NCBI GenBank assembly: GCA_000165345.1
Contig: CM000433.1
Location: 448,001 to 512,000, forward strand
Direction of reading: 5' to 3'
Length of the DNA stretch: 64,000 nt
How positions within the stretch are numbered: the first letter of the stretch is position 1; every line of letters begins with the position of its first letter. The notes below the pieces were generated by a model, which was not told the DNA's origin, ran no database searches, and saw only the letters and a list, made by a program, of their open reading frames with translations. Below are positions 3,994 to 55,957 of this stretch, piece after piece. The translations under genes and the position numbers were made by a program.

Positions 3994-5638
<1,645 letters not shown>

Positions 5639-5717: not shown

Positions 5718-5735
5718 TTTTGAGCGGGAATTTTT
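5718..5735. promoter_or_regulatory. E2F-like site (TTTTGAGCGGGAATTTTT) in the 207-bp divergent DNMT2/ELOF1 intergenic region.
   Basis: The motif is present in the sequence. Its function is inferred from the known over-representation of GGCGGGAA/E2F motifs upstream of Cryptosporidium genes. Confidence 0.35.
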
Positions 5736-16013: not shown

Positions 16014-16609
16014 ATGGTTTTGGGCGAAGTTTCTGGTTTATCAAAACCTCGTGTAAGTTTTCGAATAGCAGCTTCTTTGAAAGTAAAGCCAAACACGCAG
16101 GATGATGTTGACTAAATTTGAATTTGCTACATATTTAGATAGATGAATTGAGGCAATTCTTCAAGATTGTAGATAGAGATAAAGCAGGAAAAATTTCTGA
16201 AGAGAAGATAATACATATGTTAAATGCTATTGGGGTGCAATTAACAAAAAGAGATAAACTTGCAATTAAAGCAGGTAAGACTTTGACAATTTAAAGACGA
16301 ATTAATAATTCATGAAATTGAATTTCTATTTTAGAGTCCAACGAGAGAGGTCTTTACACTGTTGATGATTTAATTAGAATTGGTGAGGTTGTTTATAATG
16401 ACAGAGCTATTGCCAGGGATTTGGTGGAATCATTGCAATCAATCTCCAATGGAAAAGATACAATAAGTTCTGCCGAATTGAGAAAACATCTCTTAAACAT
16501 TGGGTCAATCATTAAATTAACACCAGAAGAAGTGAACTGTATACTAAGTGATATCGGCGAAAGTAACATAAACATCTATGATTTTGTGTCCTATTGTATT
16601 TCAGAATAA
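16014..16609 (+). CDS. EF-hand protein (calmodulin / myosin-light-chain-like). I predict 3 exons: 16014..16052, 16139..16274 and 16335..16609.
   Basis: The ORF track lists only the last 62 codons. Exon 2 encodes a canonical EF loop, 'DRDKAGKISEEK'. Intron 1 runs from GTAAGT to TATTTAG (86 nt). Intron 2 runs from AG|GTAAGA to TTTTAG (60 nt). Both preserve the frame with no internal stops. A GCATGCATGCA box sits about 140 bp upstream. Confidence 0.55.
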
Positions 16610-17592
16610 AACACATAGACAACGAAGGGAATAATCTAAAAACGCAATCAATCTTCCTAAATATAATGTAAAATCAGAAGATCCGTTTATTTGTCCTCAG
16701 CTATGCATACAGAGTACACATATGTAGGATCAGGTCTGTCCATTTTCGTCATTTTAAACATTATACTAAGTGTATTTTATGATTATGCGTTTAATATACT
16801 TAATTATATAATTTATATAAAGGTTTTTCTTTTTTTTTTTTTGAAAAATAGATTAATTCTTATTTAAACAAAATTAGTTCAAAAAGCTTTAAATATTCAT
16901 GTGAATCAATACATTATTTTAATAACTGTCATTTATCGGTAATATATACATTTGAATTTAAAGTTCAACTCAAAATATCCTGTTTTGGGAATAAATTTAA
17001 TTTTTTTTCATATTTGTTGAGAAGTGGTCATAATCGTTACAAATAGTCAGAAAGACGCTTAAAGTATTTGTCTCTGATACTTTATTAAATCATATTAATT
17101 AGACGTTAATAACATATGCAATTTTAATTTAGTAATAAATATCAACAAAAAATTAAGGCGGTATATTCTGGAATTTAAAATTTGTTTTCGATAATTTAAT
17201 GCATGACATATTAAGATGTCAACAAAAAATTATTTTCAAATAATAAAAGTGAATAAACAAACATAATAGTAATAAAATAATCTATTACAGAACTCTATAA
17301 TTTTTTTTCCAGTAAATCATTAATCAGTTGTATCGGATTATTATTATTTTTTTTACAAATTTAATTATTTATTAATTTATAATGTAAAATTTCTCCCCAC
17401 ATTTCTTGAATTGTAGTGCTAAATAGTATTTCAGAGATAATATTTATAAAAATATATGCCGGCACTTAATATTACGTAATTGCATGCAAATAAATAATAT
17501 TTTTTTAAAAATATGTTTATTTCAAGTAATGAGATTTTAGATAATTGTAAAAAATATAAAGAAAATGAAGCAGAATAGAAAATACTTTAATA

Positions 17593-18094
17593 ATGGCATT
17601 ATTATCTGACTTCATTGAAAAATCATACTTGAATATACTGAAAAATATTGATAACTTTGAATATTCAGAATGCAATGACCCACTAATAAAACAACAGAAA
17701 AGAGCAAATAATGAGTTGGAATCGTTACTTTTTGATCATGTAAGTTTCTTGGATGATTAAAAGAAATTTAATTGGCAAGTAAAACGAATATTAAGTGCCA
17801 TTAAATAATGATAGTAATAAATAATTGACTTTTAATTAATAGAAGAATAGTGGAGAAATCTTATCTAAAAAAGATTCAATTTTGGGTGAACTTGCTACTC
17901 TTAAAGAAGCTCAAGAAAAAAAATTATATCAAAGAAAAAAGAGTAAATATGTCAAAATAAATATGATAAAACATTTGATTAAAGGTGAGTTATTATATAT
18001 AATAAAGATTAAAGTTTAATAGACTTTACAAATTGCAGAGAATTTGGATTCTTTGAATATAATCAAGAGCAAATCTCAGAATATTAGGATTTAA
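17593..18094 (+). CDS. Hypothetical small coiled-coil protein of about 114 aa. I predict 3 exons: 17593..17739, 17843..17984 and 18039..18094.
   Basis: ATG at 17593. Exon 1 ends at the GTAAGT donor at 17740. Exon 2 is bounded by a TTAATAG acceptor and a GTGAGT donor. Exon 3 follows a TTGCAG acceptor. The frame is continuous to TAA at 18092-18094. CCGGCA and GCATGC motifs lie 110-130 bp upstream. I see no family homology; this is a pure gene-model inference. Confidence 0.35.
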
Positions 18095-24062: not shown

Positions 24063-24247
24063 TGATTAGGCCTTTACTAAATCAAATTTTATTTCATTTA
24101 AACAAATACAATTTTTTCCACTAGTTTTTATATCCCAATTTTTTATTTATTTTACGATTTTTATTTTTTTAAATATCAATTCTTCACACTTTTTTTTTTA
24201 GATATTTTATTATTCAATCTAAATGCATGTAATTTGTAATGAAAAAG

Positions 24248-24270
24248 TACCGGTAATTCAGGCGGGAAAA
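24248..24270. promoter_or_regulatory. ACCGGTAATTCAGGCGGGAAAA, an ACCGGTA box adjacent to a canonical E2F half-site. It sits in the divergent intergenic region between the repeat-protein gene and the EndoG-like gene.
   Basis: The motif is present in the sequence. Its function is inferred. Confidence 0.35.
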
Positions 24271-24757
24271 GACACGTATTATTTGATAATTATATAAATA
24301 AATTTATATTAACTTGTAAAATTATTTGCCAAATATAGAATTTGAGAAAAATTTATTATTATTTTTTTTTTTATCAGGGAAAATTATGTGTGATTAGAAT
24401 TTACGTAGTGGCAATTACTATATATTATTCTCAATTAGGTAGTTATAATTAGGAGTATTCGTTGTTTTTTTTTTTGAGGAAGTTTAATATATTTAGATTT
24501 TGAAAATATTAGTGAAATTAAAAAAAAAAAAAAAAAAGCATTAAACTATACATTTATTGTGAGTAATTTTTTTTATTAATACGAGGGAAATTTATATAAT
24601 TTCATTTTAATATTTATTGATATAATTTTTTGATTAAATAAATATATATATTATATTCCGGGAATTGCTACATCACAATATAAGACTTGTATTCATTCCA
24701 TATAAAAAAAACTAGTATTTGAATGTAAAAAACCACTGTTAATTTAATGTTGAAAAT

Positions 24758-26176: not shown

Positions 26177-26995
26177 ATTTTTCTACTAGTATCTTAATTT
26201 TCGTTTCATAGTACTTTTTTACTTTTCAATTGTAAGGATTCTCTTCATAATTCAACTTTATAGATTAATAATAACATGCAAAGCTTCCCGCCGTCTCTAA
26301 TTAAAAAAAAAAAAAAAATATTCTGTATATTTATCCTTAACTTGAAAAAATTTCAAAGCTTATCTACATATTTCTTTAATAATATATACCAAATTGACAT
26401 AAGTTAGCGGATTTTAACACTAATAAATTATTTTCCCTCTTAAATTAATACTAATACGCACTTTTGCACATTTCCTTCCGCCATTCACTTTTTTCCCACC
26501 AACGTCCTGTATCTAAAATAATAAGCAAAAAGACTGTAAAATAGGATCAATAATTATTAATTCAAATTTCCCGCCAAAATGGCATGACGATTTAGTTACC
26601 AAATATCGCATTAATTGTATTATGTGCGTTTCACCCAAGTATATTCTCTTTCTTTTGATTTATAGAAGAGAAAACTTAAAATCGTGAAATAGTTTGGAGA
26701 ATTATATCCCAATTTTTTTAAATCTTCACTAAAGATTTTTATCAAGTTTAATTTTTCTACTAATTTTTATTACTGGGTATCTACGCTCATAAGCGTGAAT
26801 GTATTGTTCAAAACAGAGAAAATTATTAAGGATTGGAGTTTTTTACTCAGCTCGTAGAATCTCCCGTAAAATCCGTTATATTTAATTGGATTTATCAATT
26901 TCTAATTTGATATCTTTGGAATTGAATGAGTTAAAGGATAAGAATAATATTAAAGATTTCATTGTTTCTAACAAATCTATTGAATATTCTTCCAT

Positions 26996-29440: not shown

Positions 29441-29496
29441 TACCGGTATAATATTTAAATACCGGCATATAACTATGCAAGGAGACGGCGCCAAAC
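29441..29496. promoter_or_regulatory. Composite upstream module TACCGGTATA-n10-ACCGGCAT-n18-GGCGCCAAA, about 300-350 bp upstream of RPS13.
   Basis: The motifs are seen in the sequence. The same ACCGGYAT + GGCGCC pairing recurs at 31507..31527. Confidence 0.35.
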
Positions 29497-29799
29497 GTAT
29501 TGTCTTGAAAATGAAGTCAATTATGTGAAAAATAATATTAACAATTGTTATTGTTATTAATTATTACTATAAGTAAATGCTAAGAGTTAAAATTAGTTTT
29601 CAAGTTAAATAATATAATATTAATTAAATTTATTTATTTTAAATAAATAACAAAGGAAAGAAAGACAAATTAAATTACGTCTTAAATAGCCTAAAATAAT
29701 AGAAAAAAGTGACACAACAATCTCCAAGGTCAAATTGGAATAATTAATATTTTGTTTCCATTGAAATATTATTATTGAGGATTAATTTAGAGAGGAAAA

Positions 29800-30255
29800 A
29801 TGGGAAGAGTTTACGGACGTGGAAAAGGTATTTCATCATCAGCTAAGCCATATAGAAGACGACCACCAACATGGATTAAGTTAAAGCCATCAGAGGCAGA
29901 AGATTTAATTACAAAGCTTGCCCGTAAAGGTTTGACCCCATCTCAAATTGGCGTTACTTTGAGAGATTCTCATGGTATTCCAATGGTCCAATCTTTAACA
30001 GGTAGTAAGATTTTAAGAATTTTGAAGAAGAATGGTTTAGCTCCAGATATTCCAGAAGATCTCTATTTCTTGATCAAGAGAGCTGTTTCTATCCGCAAGC
30101 ACCTTGAGAAATTCAGAAAGGATACTGCTGCTAAATACAGATTGATTTTGGTTGAGTCTAGAATTCACCGTTTAGCTAGATATTTTAAGCGTTCAAAGCA
30201 GCTTCCAGCCAACTGGAAGTATCAAGCTGCTACTGCCTCTACTTTGGTTGCATAA
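29800..30255 (+). CDS. RPS13: 40S ribosomal protein S13 (uS15).
   Basis: It is 151 aa and collinear with eukaryotic RPS13: MGR...GKG.S.SA.PYRR..P.W.K......[20 protein letters not shown]......TG.KILRILK..GLAPD.PEDLY.LIK.AV..RKHLE..RKD...[16 protein letters not shown]....LP..WKY...TAS.LVA. Confidence 0.95.
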
Positions 30256-30717
30256 GTTTCTTAATTTTGTTATAACCAAACTTCCAAAAGAGATTTCATA
30301 ATTGGTAAAAGAGATAAAGGCTCTTTCATTGATTTATTCTTTTTTATAGATTCTGAATATTCTAAGATTTATTTACTAAATAGTTAGCTATTTAATATTA
30401 ATTAGAAGCTGGTTTTAGTTTAATAAATTTCTAATTGACTTTTTCTCAATTTTCTTTTTAGTTTTAAAATCACTAAATGACTATTTGTTTGGATTTTGAA
30501 AAGAGACAAGTTGTGTTATCTATAGGTTGAAATATATTATAAATCTATTATAAGCTAAGATTGAAAATTATAGAATAGTCTAATGAAGAATATCTAATTA
30601 ATGTTATTAAAATAACATTAATTAATAACATTAATTTATTTTCTTATTTATTAATGTAATAAATCCATTTAAATATATAAATCACTTCCTTTATTAAATT
30701 CAAATATATAATTCCCT

Positions 30718-31098
30718 CTATCTTCTATTACCAAAAGAACCACGAGATTTATTATCAAAATTGCCTCCACCTGATAAATTTGTTGTAGATTTATTTCCAA
30801 ATTTAGGACCAGAAATTGGATTCACTCTTGGTGGATTTTGTTTAGGAGTATCATCTATTAATAAGGCATCTAGTGGTAAAGAGTCTGGTAATATAAAGTA
30901 TCTGATAGTATTTCCTCTTACAGTAATTTGAGAAAGACTAACAGGATTTCTGTGTTTTACACTCATTTTTACATTCTTTAAATAAGTATTCATAGACATA
31001 TCCACAGTTACTATTGTTCCTTGAATAATTGTTCCATTCTTTAATTCAATTACTACTGAATTATTGACTAATTTCATAAGGAATCTAATTAGTTTCAT
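30718..31098 (-). CDS. SNRPD1: Small nuclear ribonucleoprotein Sm D1.
   Basis: ATG at 31098. '[82 protein letters not shown]' is nearly collinear with human SmD1. It has a Gly/Arg-containing tail. Confidence 0.9.
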
Positions 31099-31506
31099 TT
31101 TTCTTCTACTGGTATTGTGAATTAACCAAATCTATATATACTCTTAATTTAACTTAAATAAATTTACATTTAAAAACAAATAAATATTTAATATATCAAT
31201 GTATAATGTACTTCACAATGCTCATAAATTTATAATAAATATCATAACTGATTATGAATTTACTAAAAATGATCCCAATTAATCAAATTGTATTATTTTG
31301 ACTAAATAAAAAGTAATCAAATTTCAAGAATTATGAGGGAAATTAAATTATATTGAAATTTAAGTTTATTTAAATAATTTGAATTGTTTCTTTATTATAT
31401 AAATATATTATATTAAATATATATTTTTTATATATTGAAATATTTTTTTCTTCTAATTTAACATTGTAAATATTTTCATTTAACGCCAATAAATGAGGGG
31501 GGTAAC

Positions 31507-31527
31507 TGCCGGTATAGGCGCCAAAAG
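31507..31527. promoter_or_regulatory. TGCCGGTATAGGCGCCAAAAG composite motif in the SmD1 / Trx-membrane-protein divergent promoter.
   Basis: The motifs are seen in the sequence. Confidence 0.35.
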
Positions 31528-31740
31528 TGTGTAGTTTTTATTATTAATCACAAAATTATTAAATAAAAAAATAAATTTTAAATTGAAATATTAAAACAAT
31601 TTAAGTATTCCACACAATAAATAAAATCTTCATTATATTAATAATAGTTGTAATAAAGTAAAGGGGGAAACAACAAAGTTGAATTAAATTTATGCATTTA
31701 TAATAAAGTCCATCTAGGTTTTGAGAATATAATAATAAAG

Positions 31741-33173: not shown

Positions 33174-34448
33174 CTATTCGAAGAAAATCCTGAAGAAAGG
33201 AGAGTACCTTACGAAGAACCCAAAAATACTTGAAATGATCTGGATAACCAATAGGTAATAAACTAACTGCCTTTCTGTTAAAGGGCCCGTGACCTCCAAA
33301 ACCAGATTAAGAAGAGTAAGATTCTTAGAAGATTCTAGCTTTCCTGTCTTTTTATTTAGTTTAGGAACTCTATGTCTTGGGCAATGAACAATTCCAAAGA
33401 GTTGTGGAATTGAAATAATAAAGTTCAAAATTTGTGGGAGAAAGAAAAGAAGAAGAGTCTTTGAAAAATGCCCCAAAATACTTACAATAGCAAAACAAGC
33501 TCCTGCAAAGTAAGTATAAGTATCGCCAACAAATACCAAAGAAGGATACCTGTTAAAATGGAATAGCGACAGACTTGAAGCTGTAAAGGGAAGTAAGAGT
33601 AAAATTGAAAAAAAATGGTGGTTTGATTTAAAGCTGAATTGCCAATTTGGTAGTATTGTAAGCATCTCAATTATGTTATAAACAATTATTGAAGCTGAGA
33701 TTATTATCGATTGTCCAACTTCTAGACCATTCACTCCTGCATATATATTTATGGAATTTGTACAAAATACTGTCAGGCATAACATATAAAGGTAATAAAA
33801 ATACCCCAAATCTATCAAAATCCTTGCTGAATAGTCTCCACCTGTCTGAAATAAAGGCAAAACTATTTGAGTACCTCCATTATAAGAAACCAAAGTTGGT
33901 AAAGCTGCAAATACTGGTAATACCATCTTATATCTCCATTTCAAATTTAATACATCATCCACAAATCCAAGAAATGTCATCATACAAATTGAAAACAATC
34001 CTGAATTATACTCTAATAATTTTACTGGATCATTACTAAATAGAATTTGGCTGCAAATTGCTGTCATCATAAACATACTTGCCGGTACTATACCTAATGA
34101 TTCTGGTATCTTCTTCTCTACTATATCTTTTTTATCTAATATTACAAGTTCATTGTTTTTACATTCATTTTCTTCCAATAAATTCGTCTTTGAATTAATG
34201 TTACTAATACTGTCACTTCTTTTGTTAATGTCTATTCCAAAAAGACCATTCTCAAGAAGTTTCTCTCCGAATGTTGGAATCAATTTGCTACAAACCAAAT
34301 AAGTTAGCAAAGAAGATATTGAACATATTAGTGTATGTAGAAAATAACTTGTTTTGAATAGAGAAATATTTGTAATCACCAATAATATAATTAATATTGT
34401 TATTATAACAAATTCTCCACTTCTTTGAAATTTATTATTATTTACCAT
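33174..34448 (-). CDS. ALG7: UDP-GlcNAc:dolichyl-phosphate GlcNAc-1-phosphate transferase (ALG7/DPAGT1).
   Basis: ATG at 34448. It is a multi-TM protein with family signatures 'NLKWRYKMVLP', 'NSINIYAGVNGLEVGQS' and 'VFVGDTYTYFAGA'. The C-terminus 'LTLLNLVLEVTGPLTERQL' matches the DPAGT1 C-terminus. Confidence 0.9.
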   Translation of the reverse strand: MVNNNKFQRSGEFVIITILIILLVITNISLFKTSYFLHTLICSISSLLTYLVCSKLIPTFGEKLLENGLFGIDINKRSDSISNINSKTNLLEENECKNNELVILDKKDIVEKKIPESLGIVPASMFMMTAICSQILFSNDPVKLLEYNSGLFSICMMTFLGFVDDVLNLKWRYKMVLPVFAALPTLVSYNGGTQIVLPLFQTGGDYSARILIDLGYFYYLYMLCLTVFCTNSINIYAGVNGLEVGQSIIISASIIVYNIIEMLTILPNWQFSFKSNHHFFSILLLLPFTASSLSLFHFNRYPSLVFVGDTYTYFAGACFAIVSILGHFSKTLLLFFLPQILNFIISIPQLFGIVHCPRHRVPKLNKKTGKLESSKNLTLLNLVLEVTGPLTERQLVYYLLVIQIISSIFGFFVRYSPFFRIFFE

Positions 34449-39314: not shown

Positions 39315-40363
39315 TTTTTTTACCAATTTCCTCCCTTTAAGTTGAATATTTCAACACTTTTTTTATATGTAAAATTGGTCTTGCAAGTTAATTAATTCAA
39401 CTATTTGTTATTTTAAATCATACATTAATAACCTTTAAATATTTATTATTAATTATCTAAATGTAATTTTCTCTCAGATTATTTCCACATATACATATAT
39501 ATATATATATTTTTTTTAATTTGGTTTTCCTTAGTTAATCTTGTGCAAATAACTTATTCCTTAATATTATATTCTTTCATTTAATTCTGATGTATTGCTT
39601 TAATACATTAATGCATATTCATTTAATATATCCAACGTTATTTGTCTTTAATTTATTCAATTCTTTCTTTATATTGTCGTTTGACTTTTCAGTCTATTTC
39701 TAATTACTTCTTTCTTTTATATTTAAACATGGTACCATATTTATTTTTTTTACTATTAATAAATACATGTAATTTTTGGCGCCGACTCAATGCAATTTTG
39801 ATCAGGCGTATTTTGTCTTAAATTGACTAAGATAACAAAAATTGATTTGTTTATTATTCTTTATCTTTTTTCTTACATATGGTTGAATTTAGAATATCCT
39901 TTGCTTTCTCTTTAATATATCACTTGAATTCTTGTTATATTCTTTTTGATTTAAGTTTCCTTTCAAACTCATAGTTTGTAGTTATAATATAATAAATGTC
40001 AAAAAAAAAAAAATTCTTTTTTTAATTAATTAATTAAATAATAAATTATTGTCATTTCAGGCCCTTCTTATTATTATTCAAGTTTTAATTTTATGTGGAC
40101 AATTTAGTTTACATTGCATGCAAATTGTACATTCACGCAATACCGGTATGCAATAAAAAAAACTTTTTTCTCTGAATGTTAAAAAAACCGCATGCAAAAA
40201 AAAATGAGAAAAGAGGTTTTAAATATGAAAATATATTTGTTTTTTCTTAAAACAGTTATAAAATCTAAGTTTTGAAATTTTGATATTGTTGGTAAATAAT
40301 GCCAATATATTATTAATTTTCACTTATTTATTTTATTAATTGAAAAGCCACCTTAAGCGGCTC

Positions 40364-41670: not shown

Positions 41671-41683
41671 TTTGGCGCCAAAT
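41671..41683. promoter_or_regulatory. Palindromic E2F-type site TTTGGCGCCAAAT.
   Basis: It matches the perfect consensus TTTSGCGCSAAA. It lies in a 1.4-kb intergenic region that is upstream of the kinase gene at 42675 and of the minus-strand K/E-rich gene whose start is 41245. Confidence 0.35.
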
Positions 41684-46411: not shown

Positions 46412-47299
46412 TTGTTCACTAAATACTTATTGTTATTTCTTTTAATTAATTTGTCATATTAAACACCTATTAAACTAATCATTTTATCTCAAATATATTA
46501 AAAAAATTCTTTGGCCTCAATTAAGTAAAGTTCCTAGAATTAAAGAAAAAAGCAATATTTACATGAAGTTTTTTTCTTATGTGGATAGAAATTATGCAAG
46601 TTATGCACGTACCGGCATTTGCATGCAGAACTAGCAAATAAAAACCCACATAAATAATACACGTAATATGATTTTAAAAAATTATTAAAAGAAAATGAAT
46701 TAAAATTTTCATTAAATAGATAACATCTTTTTTTCTTTTTTTAAAAATTTAAATAGATAGTTTGAAGGTTTTAATTGGAAGTAATGAAAAGTAACGTATA
46801 AACCACAAAAGAACCGAATTATTCACGAAAGTTATCGAGGAGAAATTTGAATTTAATATCACACGTAAAAAAAAATCTGACTTTTGAAAACAGTAATAGC
46901 ATGAAAAAAAAATAGATCAGGTTAGTTTGGGAGAATATATTAAAAAAAAAAAAAGAAAGTTAAAGCAATTCATAGTAAGACATTAAATATAAGAAAGATT
47001 ATTAATTTCTTAAGCAAACTATCACAACCAGGCTTAATTGGAAAGTTTTTAGAGAATTATGTTGCAAAATCAAAACAAAAGACAAATTCAATGTGTATGC
47101 TAATATAGACTGATCTTTAAAATGGCGCCTTGTGGGACAATTGGATACTGGAATGCCCGCATGAATGCGTTAAATGCTAATTGTCAGTTAAGCTTCAAGA
47201 TCGGGAGGAAAGGAATTAAATCAGAAAATAGACAAATAAAGTAGTTGTAAGACTACAACTGCGAAATAATACCAGAACCTTTTGATTAGTGGTGGAAAG

Positions 47300-52123: not shown

Positions 52124-52197
52124 GCCGCGATAGCTCAATTGGATAGAGCGTTGGACTTCTAATCCAGAGGCTCGGGGTTCGATTCCCCGTCGCGGTG
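52124..52197 (+). tRNA. tRNA-Arg (anticodon TCT).
   Basis: It has a cloverleaf. The acceptor is gccgcga/tcgcggt. The D arm is agctcaattggatagagc. The anticodon loop is ctTCTaa. The T arm is cgggg-ttcgatt-ccccg. CCA is not encoded. Confidence 0.85.
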
Positions 52198-52290
52198 CTC
52201 TTTTTTATATATATAACAAATTATGTGGTTTGGCGGGCTCCAGTTTTTTATAATTGTATAGGCAAACAGTCACTTTTGATTGTACGTGAT

Positions 52291-52364
52291 GCGGGCTTGG
52301 TGTAGTTGGATATCACGTCTGCCTACGGAGCAGAAGGTCAGGAGTTCGAGTCTCTTAGCCCGTG
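52291..52364 (+). tRNA. tRNA-Arg (anticodon ACG).
   Basis: The acceptor is gcgggct/agcccgt. The anticodon stem-loop tctgc-ctACGga-gcaga is highly similar to eukaryotic tRNA-Arg-ACG. The T arm is aggag-ttcgagt-ctctt. Confidence 0.85.
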
Positions 52365-53029
52365 TATTTTTGCAATTTAGTTTTGTTTAGTTGTACTTAT
52401 TTTATGGAATTATTATTATTATTACTTTAATTCAAGATTAATTTTTAAATAAGGCTGTTCCTATATGTAAGAATTGAAATAAATTGACCAAGGTTTTGAT
52501 TATTTCCTTTTCTTTTTAATTATAGAATTCTAATTTACATGCATGCAAAACTGCAATAAACATTATTAATGACGTGTAGAATTTTTTTTAGTACCGACAT
52601 ATAATAATAATAATTTATAATTAAACTTTTTAAGATTTAAATTTAAATTAAAAGTATAAAGATTATTTTCATGGTTCGAGCGTGAAAAGTACTTGACTTT
52701 TTGGTTATTGTAGCTTAAAAATAGCCATTGGTTGAAAAGAATTGCGAAGCTTTGTAAAAAGTTAAGTCAAGTCTTTACCGTAATTTAGTTTTCAATAATT
52801 GCCACAGTAATATTGTTGGATAAATTTGAATGAATTTTTATTTGGAATTTAATATTCAAAATATTTACCGGTAAAAAAAATACAAGTATGAGGGGAGTAA
52901 ACAAGAGGTGTTAGAATTGATGGAATTGTAAGTCTAGCATTGACATAAATTACCTATATAATTGTATTACAATCGAATAGTGAGTTTTCATTATTTTAAT
53001 GTCTAAGATCCAAGTAGCTTGCATTTTTT

Positions 53030-55584: not shown

Positions 55585-55603
55585 GGCGCGCGTTGACACG
55601 TGT
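55585..55603. promoter_or_regulatory. GC-rich island GGCGCGCG-TTG-ACACGTGT, an alternating CG run plus a palindromic CACGTG core, in the Arp1 / SET-like divergent promoter.
   Basis: This is seen in the sequence. It is one of the very few GC-rich stretches in intergenic DNA in this window. Confidence 0.3.
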
Positions 55604-55957
55604 AATTACAAAATTTTTTATTTTAAAAACTTGCAACGCCGGTATAGGAAGGAAATAAATGTGGAAATAAAGTAAATTAAAATTTTCTTTTTTTTTTTTT
55701 TTTTTTTTTAATTTATTAAAAACAAAATAAATAAATAATTAATTATAGTAAATTTATTTTTTAATAAATTAACTACGAGGGCAAGACATTTCAAAGGAAA
55801 TAAATCCTCGTTTCTATAATTTTCAACACATACAAAGAAATTCTGGAGAATAATTTAACACCAAATTTAAAGTAAAATGGATTTATGAGAATTTGTTCAT
55901 GCTCTTAGAATAAAAGGTAACATTAGATGATTTTAAAGTTATATTAATGGAGTTATA

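Follow-up and report, generated by a model that had tools for sequence, protein, structure and literature searches.

The 8-base palindrome TRCCGGYA (T-A/G-CCGG-C/T-A) is, on comparison of orthologous sequences, a real, evolutionarily conserved and selectively constrained promoter element of Cryptosporidium, and it is an independent third motif that stands beside E2F-type sites or the palindrome TGCATGCA (AP2_1), not half of a fixed E2F module. We examined this element, referred to below as the box, in a 64-kb stretch of Cryptosporidium parvum DNA (the window; 31% G+C), which corresponds to about 469.8-533.8 kb of record CP044418.1 in assembly GCA_015245375.1, and in orthologous loci from C. 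hominis, C. tyzzeri, C. meleagridis, chipmunk genotype I, C. ubiquitum, C. canis, C. felis, C. xiaoi/bovis, C. ryanae and C. muris, of which C. muris is the most distant. The first-pass annotation of the window had described an ACCGGYAT element in the company of E2F-type sites and had proposed that the two form a fixed bipartite module, an observation that is confirmed in part and an interpretation that is supported in part. Our preferred reading, to which we assign a probability of roughly 0.6, is that TRCCGGYA would be a protein-binding promoter element distinct from both E2F and TGCATGCA sites and auxiliary to the main factor of the promoter.

The gene map of the window was built from open reading frames (ORFs) and Pfam matches, and the ORF map separates 20.6 kb of non-coding DNA (24% G+C) from 43.4 kb of coding DNA (34% G+C). 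Each of the nine coordinates listed by the first-pass annotation has a CCGG-core element at it or at most 4 bp away, and even the literal pattern ACCGGYAT is non-random, with 6 strand-matches against 0.47 expected and no equal count in 100 shuffles. The literal pattern fits four loci, whereas TRCCGGYA is the best consensus for all of the listed sites. Exact copies of this palindrome occur eight times in non-coding DNA against 0.16 expected (at 17457, 24248, 29441, 29460, 31507, 40141, 46610 and 52866), the single form TACCGGTA accounts for four non-coding copies against 0.06 expected, and a ninth non-coding box, CGCCGGTA at 55637, carries one flank mismatch. The roughly 43 kb of coding DNA holds one copy, TGCCGGTA at 34080-34087 inside the Glycos_transf_4 gene, which is probably incidental; the description of the element as always intergenic is thus true of the listed sites while passing over this one. 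Among CCGG tetramers, RCCGGY makes up nine of ten in non-coding DNA and five of twenty in coding DNA, where one of the twenty is the full box. When all non-coding 6-mers were ranked under a dinucleotide model, CCGGTA, the strongest half-site of the box, was found 12 times against 1.16 expected (z = 10). The sequence-specific families came in the order E2F (GGCGCC, GCGCCA, CCCGCC), GCATGC/CATGCA and CCGGTA, with nothing between them except AT repeats and one more E2F word. Box enrichment is seen again in the non-coding part of about 40 kb of orthologous sequence, with 4 copies against 0.11 expected in C. muris and 6 against 0.09 in C. ubiquitum.

The boxes lie upstream of genes with varied products, and their neighbouring sites fall into two kinds. 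The two genes that the first-pass annotation had named are correctly identified as RPS13 (29800-30255, + strand) and an LSM/SmD1-type gene (30718-31098, - strand), and the further genes beside boxes encode thioredoxin-like, Endonuclease_NS, Sin3, prohibitin (Band 7), actin-related and SET-domain proteins. All E2F distances run centre to centre, between a box and whichever E2F-type core is nearest within its intergenic region. In the RPS13 promoter (ATG at 29800), a distal box TACCGGTA (29441-29448) and a proximal box TACCGGCA (29460-29467) lie 45 and 26 bp from the core of GAGACGGCGCCAAA (29482-29495, + strand), an E2F-type site with a 5' extension. In the divergent SmD1/thioredoxin-like promoter the box TGCCGGTA (31507-31514) is 9 bp from its E2F-type partner GGCGCCAAA (31517-31525, + strand). 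The divergent promoter between a 1610-aa ORF and the Endonuclease_NS gene has a box TACCGGTA (24248-24255) with both kinds of partner, namely the GGCGGG of the E2F-type site GGCGGGAAA (24261-24269, + strand) 12 bp downstream and the AP2_1-type box TGCATGTA (24224-24231) 24 bp upstream. These partner sites at 24261, 29487 and 31517 agree with the published E2F definition (PMC3734150), in which the core is flanked by runs of T and A. In the divergent actin-related/SET promoter the one-mismatch box (55637-55644) is 52 bp from GGCGCGCG (55585-55592; 52-63 bp from the box).

The other four boxes are distant from E2F cores, at 364 bp (40141), 513 bp (46610) and 635 bp (52866), and the intergenic region of the 17457 box has no E2F-type core. 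Three of these four have TGCATGCA as a neighbour. The box TGCCGGCA (17457-17464), which precedes a small spliced + strand gene (ATG at 17593) by about 130 bp, has TGCATGCA 24 bp downstream (17481-17488); the box TACCGGTA (40141-40148), upstream of a 1427-aa gene on the - strand, is 26 bp from TGCATGCA at 40115-40122; and the Sin3 promoter carries the composite TACCGGCA-TT-TGCATGCA (46610-46627) at a distance of 10 bp. The fourth, a solo TACCGGTA (52866-52873) situated 162 bp upstream of the prohibitin ATG, has no partner site. Altogether TRCATGYA lies 10-26 bp from the box in four of eight promoters, three of which are without a nearby E2F core. The earlier statement that the element usually lies about 10-40 bp from GGCGCC/GGCGGG was therefore overstated: four sites in three promoters are at 9, 12, 26 and 45 bp, a fifth is 52 bp from GGCGCGCG, and the remaining boxes are more than 300 bp from an E2F core or in a region with none. 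The RPS13 and SmD1 arrangements, called almost identical, differ in their gaps (2 bp at 31507, and 19 and 38 bp from the proximal and the distal RPS13 box respectively). The accompanying list of E2F-type sites was sound in that GGCGCC is present at all seven places given for it; the full 12-mer TTTGGCGCCAAA occurs only at 41671, two GGCGCC sites (11608 and 28606) were missed, and position 5722, given as GGCGGGAA, reads AGCGGGAA.

Proximity was evaluated by permutation, with the boxes re-placed at random inside their own intergenic regions and a threshold of 30 bp. An E2F core lies within 30 bp of a box in three of eight regions (0.56 expected, p = 0.013), GCATGC does so in three of eight (0.27 expected, p = 0.0008), and one or the other does so in six of eight against 0.84 expected, a result equalled in 0 of 20,000 permutations. 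Between GCATGC and E2F sites themselves no such association is seen (one of nine regions at 60 bp or less, 1.35 expected), so that the pairing of the box does not reflect a general clumping of promoter motifs. In 17 kb flanking the window, which is a small independent sample, both intergenic CCGG sites (2/2) are near TGCATGCA, at 15 and 25 bp. Partner distances fall near 10 and 25 bp, with too few cases to claim helical phasing.

Conservation of the box extends across the genus. Eleven intergenic regions (8.8 kb) were aligned three ways, between C. parvum, C. ubiquitum and C. canis, and of the eight boxes with orthologous sequence (all but the one at 17457) seven have an invariant CCGG core, against a background in the same alignments of 37.6% invariant positions and 10.8% invariant 4-mers. 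No other 6-mer shows so large an excess of invariant copies as CCGGTA (6/12, p ~9e-5 before correction), which ranks ahead of GGCGCC. Only the distal RPS13 box at 29441 departs from this; it is confined to C. parvum, C. hominis and C. tyzzeri, and a degenerate version stands in its place in C. meleagridis, chipmunk genotype I and C. canis. At the SmD1/thioredoxin promoter, GCCGGTAT (GTACCGGTTA in C. felis), two nucleotides and GGCGCCAA are retained in eight species, and the string GGGG.GTAA..GCCGGTAT.GGCGCCAAA forms an island of identity amid flanks that cannot be aligned. The 24248 box is kept in six species and lost in C. meleagridis (ACCTAT), and the 40141 box reads CCGGTAT without change from C. 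parvum through C. canis and GTACCGGTATTTGCATGCAAT in C. muris. Cross-species footprinting also drew on prohibitin orthologues, in place of DAD1, for which C. parvum strains alone were retrieved. Each of the four species compared has a prohibitin box, placed 128-188 bp before the ATG, as TGCCGGCA in C. ubiquitum and C. canis and as TACCGGTA in C. muris. For the 55637 box, C. ubiquitum and C. canis have CACCGGTATAGG. C. muris lacks this box, keeps those at 40141, 46610 and 52866, and has a further box upstream of the acidic ribosomal protein gene at a place where C. parvum has none. The RPS13 box is missing from C. felis and C. muris.

Spacing between box and partner behaves differently within and between promoters. 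Across promoters, the box-to-E2F gaps are 2, 5, 19 and 45 bp, and this variation argues against a single fixed module. Within a promoter the distance is held, at +9 for SmD1/thioredoxin in eight species, at +12 for the 24248 promoter in five species (+11 in C. canis) and at +26 from the proximal RPS13 box to the GGCGCC core in seven species. The Sin3 box and its TRCATGYA keep +10 in C. parvum, C. ubiquitum, C. canis and C. muris, with variable letters in the 2-nt spacer. The RPS13 pair of C. xiaoi/bovis and C. ryanae, 27 bp apart, faces the other way with respect to the gene (L028:9726-9765; L029:9696-9735; L033:7330-7365); it reads CCGG, 22 nt and GGCGCCAAA, compared with a 21-nt spacer in C. 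parvum, and the two spacers share GAGAC beside the E2F core and nothing else. The whole spacer from the RRM gene to RPS13 is about 3 kb in these species and 0.85 kb in C. parvum. Retention of spacing while spacer letters change, together with inversion of the pair, points to constraint on the relative position of two bound proteins, and the inversion with a replaced spacer speaks against both an RNA gene and a start-site element that depends on direction.

A model that accommodates these observations would have a putative dimeric factor, suggested by the palindromic form of the box, bind TRCCGGYA as an auxiliary partner of the main promoter factor 10-26 bp away, whether E2F/DP or a TGCAT-binding ApiAP2. 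The outcome would be a series of promoter-specific composite elements, the geometry of each then being held by selection. Candidates for the factor may be sought among ApiAP2 domains without a published specificity, given that by the text of the 2014 binding study roughly a third of the tested domains gave no motif, or among DNA-binding Myb proteins. Several points weigh against this reading. The case for the putative binding box is built from sequence comparison, its statistics rest on nine sites in one 64-kb region plus their orthologues, and the partner definitions and distance thresholds were picked after the data had been inspected. The non-coding fraction, as it derives from an ORF-based map, takes in untranslated regions, the two transfer RNA (tRNA) genes and a few small spliced exons. 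E2F sites are kept where the box is lost (C. meleagridis at 24248, C. felis and C. muris at RPS13), so that the box is dispensable at the promoters where several lineages have dropped it. Finally, published de novo searches that took in every C. parvum upstream region do not report the box as a separate motif.

Alternative explanations were also weighed. That box and E2F site are the halves of one dedicated, fixed bipartite module, read by E2F/DP with a single co-factor, is the interpretation of the first-pass annotation, and part of it stands in that spacing is kept to within 1 bp at each promoter in those intestinal-clade species that retain the box. Three promoters also share the order of box followed by GGCG[C/G][C/G]AAA in the same internal orientation, the C. 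bovis group inverts the RPS13 pair as a unit, and a MEME consensus, CCGGCAAATTTTGGCG, appears in a published table of C. parvum motifs (Table S3, PMC3734150). We nevertheless consider such a module unlikely, as spacing varies between promoters over the gaps given above, four of eight promoters have no E2F core within 300 bp (three pairing with TGCATGCA and one standing alone), none of the four C. muris boxes is beside an E2F site, and E2F persists after loss of the box. An origin of the pattern in chance or base composition, with a few GC-rich words standing out in AT-rich spacers, would draw on the small sample and on a motif defined after inspection; we regard it as extremely improbable in view of the roughly 50-fold enrichment over the dinucleotide model, the ratio of eight non-coding copies to one in coding DNA that is twice as long and GC-richer, the cores invariant in seven of eight boxes across three species, and the replication of the enrichment in C. 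muris and C. ubiquitum.

About as doubtful as the fixed module is the view that the box is a centre-variant of the AP2_1 site (TRC-CG-GYA for TRC-AT-GYA) bound by the same TGCAT-binding ApiAP2 proteins (cgd2_3490, cgd1_3520, cgd8_3230 and cgd5_4250), the pairs being clusters of sites for one factor. AP2_1 TGCATGCA, assigned to ApiAP2 domains of the cgd2_3490/PF14_0633 type and abundant in C. parvum promoters, resembles the box in being an intergenic 8-bp palindrome with the same outer T-R-C..G-Y-A positions, and non-coding DNA of the window has 17 copies of TRCATGYA to 8 of TRCCGGYA. The text of the protein-binding-microarray paper describes four C. parvum AP2 domains that bind TGCAT-type sites, and TACATGTA at 39764 adjoins an E2F core just as CCGG boxes do. 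The centres differ, however (AT against CG), as do the preferred flanks (TGC...GCA for CATG and TAC...GTA for CCGG, or TG..CA against TA..TA), the box and every orthologue keep CCGG with no switching between CCGG and CATG at orthologous boxes in all species examined, and the text of the protein-binding-microarray papers, as distinct from their motif logos, makes no mention of a CCGG specificity. Different flanks and the lack of switching lead us to regard them as distinct specificities, which may belong to related factors. Somewhat less probable again is a broader proposal in which TRCCGGYA and TRCATGYA would be two states of an ancient pair of palindromes common to apicomplexans and oomycetes, read by a factor family older than the ApiAP2 expansion, with the CCGG form serving in Cryptosporidium as a general co-element next to bound E2F/DP or AP2 factors, in a geometry particular to each promoter. 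Conservation for a reason other than transcription factor binding, for example as a core-promoter element, a start-site element, a sequence that excludes nucleosomes or a segment of a conserved non-coding RNA, is in our judgement quite improbable. Boxes do lie within longer conserved blocks (about 125 bp at 24130-24290 and about 55 bp at 29460-29512), but the distance from box to ATG ranges from 160 to 830 bp, the C. bovis group has the RPS13 pair in the other orientation with a replaced spacer, and Rfam shows two tRNAs in the window and nothing more.

The box appears to be uncatalogued for Cryptosporidium. No CCGG motif is found among the 25 motifs of the genome-wide C. parvum study (Table 1) or in the 2007 study, nor in the text of the 2014 ApiAP2 binding study or of the P. 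falciparum ApiAP2 survey, so far as that text extends. A sporozoite preprint using the assay for transposase-accessible chromatin with sequencing (ATAC-seq) lists E2F and poly-T motifs only, and a 2025 review names six Cryptosporidium promoter motifs (AP2_1, AP2_2, G-box, E2F, GAGA and CAAT) with no CCGG motif among them. In a literature search whose coverage stopped short of Bankier et al. 2003 and the AP2 logos, matches for Cryptosporidium with CCGG were primer sequences only. Table S3 of Oberstaller 2013 (PMC3734150), in contrast, assigns to the E2F family both the MEME consensus mentioned above (cluster 2, 16 genes, 70% with the motif) and the AlignACE consensus GCCGGCA (cluster 82), which suggests that composites of box and E2F site exist elsewhere in the genome and have been absorbed into the E2F motif.

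Closely similar palindromes have been described from oomycete promoters, as Phytophthora infestans M94 (TACCGGTA), Plasmopara halstedii streme-5 (ATACCGGTAT) and Phytophthora motif-9 (GTACCGGTA; Seidl et al.). M94 is an identical 8-bp palindrome that is likewise over-represented in promoters, and P. infestans M93 (TACATGTA) differs from it in the two central bases, paralleling the difference between TRCATGYA and TRCCGGYA here. The oomycete palindrome is unlike the box in coming from a stramenopile lineage, where it is linked to germinated-cyst, hyphal and effector genes, and pairing with E2F is not reported for it. The match between oomycetes and Cryptosporidium could be a coincidence.

Several candidate identities for the box were rejected. 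It lies outside the [C/G]GCGC[G/C]/GGCGGG definition of an E2F/DP site (PMC3734150), having neither a CGCG nor a GCGC core. An ETS-type CCGGAA reading was rejected on account of the base after CCGG, which is T or C and never A, and a c-Myb site (YAACNG) because TAACTG adjoins the 31507 box alone. Symmetric co-variation of half-sites, as in the change of the prohibitin box from TACCGGTA to TGCCGGCA, is not a rule, since the mixed forms TACCGGCA and TGCCGGTA are common. A non-coding RNA gene behind the conserved blocks was likewise rejected, Rfam yielding two tRNAs alone.

Among better known systems, the arrangement resembles that of the DNA replication-related element (DRE, TATCGATA) of Drosophila, an 8-bp palindrome that occurs near E2F sites in promoters of replication and housekeeping genes and is bound by a separate factor, DREF; the arrangement is alike and the sequence differs; this is an analogy only. 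In cell-cycle genes regulated by DREAM, the cell cycle genes homology region (CHR, TTYGAA) stands a fixed 4 nt from an E2F-like cell cycle-dependent element (CDE). Both systems join an E2F-like site to a second element, which in the window is TRCCGGYA at gaps of 2-45 bp, and no TTYGAA is present at +4 around 24261, 29487 or 31517. The Grainyhead/CP2 site AACCGGTT is also palindromic, and the CP2 family is described from animals and fungi. Its ACCGGT core occurs in four of nine boxes, whereas the flanks are T..A for the box and A..T for CP2.

The promoters of the window have further features of note. At 39764-39783, TACATGTA lies 14 bp upstream of GGCGCC, both being well conserved including in C. 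canis, and this shows that a CATG-type palindrome pairs with E2F too; the MEME consensus ACATGTTGGCGCCAAAAATG (cluster 7, Table S3, PMC3734150) resembles this composite. The RPS13 E2F site with its 5' GAGAC, GAGACGGCGCC, is invariant in all species examined, C. muris included (L027:9742-9757). GAGAC joins the E2F core directly at 29482-29492, and GAGACGGCGGG occurs on the - strand at 26287-26297. Published motifs 17 (VYGTCBC, specific to a ribosomal-protein cluster) and 10 (RMGACG), both listed as "unknown", match this extension and may therefore be extended E2F sites, not separate motifs. Two promoters have the word ACGTAT (24272-24277 and 29495-29500), beginning 2-6 bp after the E2F core and kept across species, and a CACGTA/TACGTG word was part of the FIRE output in the 2013 study. 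The block of about 125 bp at 24130-24290, in the promoter of the 1610-aa ORF and the Endonuclease_NS gene, is nearly invariant even in C. canis (AATATCAATTCTTCACAC-T(n)-AGATATTTTATTATTCAATCTAAATGCATGTAATTTG...GTACCGGTAA..GGCGGGAAAAGACACGTA) and is much longer than the named motifs account for. The SmD1/thioredoxin spacer has more conserved islands at 31611-31621 and 31690-31696, namely CACACAATAAA, which belongs to the CACACA type recognised by several AP2 domains, and TTTATGCAT. The word AAAGACAAAT is conserved in three promoter regions (29660-29669, 39640-39650 on the - strand and 47077-47086), in two of them between the E2F site and the ATG; it could be a start-site element, although its presence in coding DNA too makes the case a thin one.

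Elsewhere in the window, two tRNA genes on the + strand (52124-52197 and 52291-52364) are situated between Sin3 and prohibitin, and an Rfam scan of the window detected these and no other RNA. GGCGGG at 52232 sits between the two, and is for this reason doubtful as an E2F site. Short + strand ORFs at 16148-16609 and 17593-18019, in an apparent gap of 2.4 kb, resemble exons of small spliced genes. One of these genes has EF-hand-like sequence and the other appears to be matched by a 107-aa + strand gene call in C. tyzzeri, cut off at the start of locus L003. A gene for a DNMT2-like C-5 cytosine methyltransferase lies at 3994-4905 (- strand) and is longer in other assemblies (397-407 aa, with an additional upstream part); a link between it and the CpG-containing box is not evident.

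The gain from this analysis is incremental, adding one more entry to the few recognised promoter motifs of the genus and no new kind of mechanism. It may be of practical use in that the box offers a specific bait for finding its factor, and the RPS13 and SmD1 promoters, being short and well defined, are practical test cases. E2F sites lie upstream of most genes of this organism and yet expression differs among them, and the box would provide a concrete candidate for the combinatorial control of these genes.

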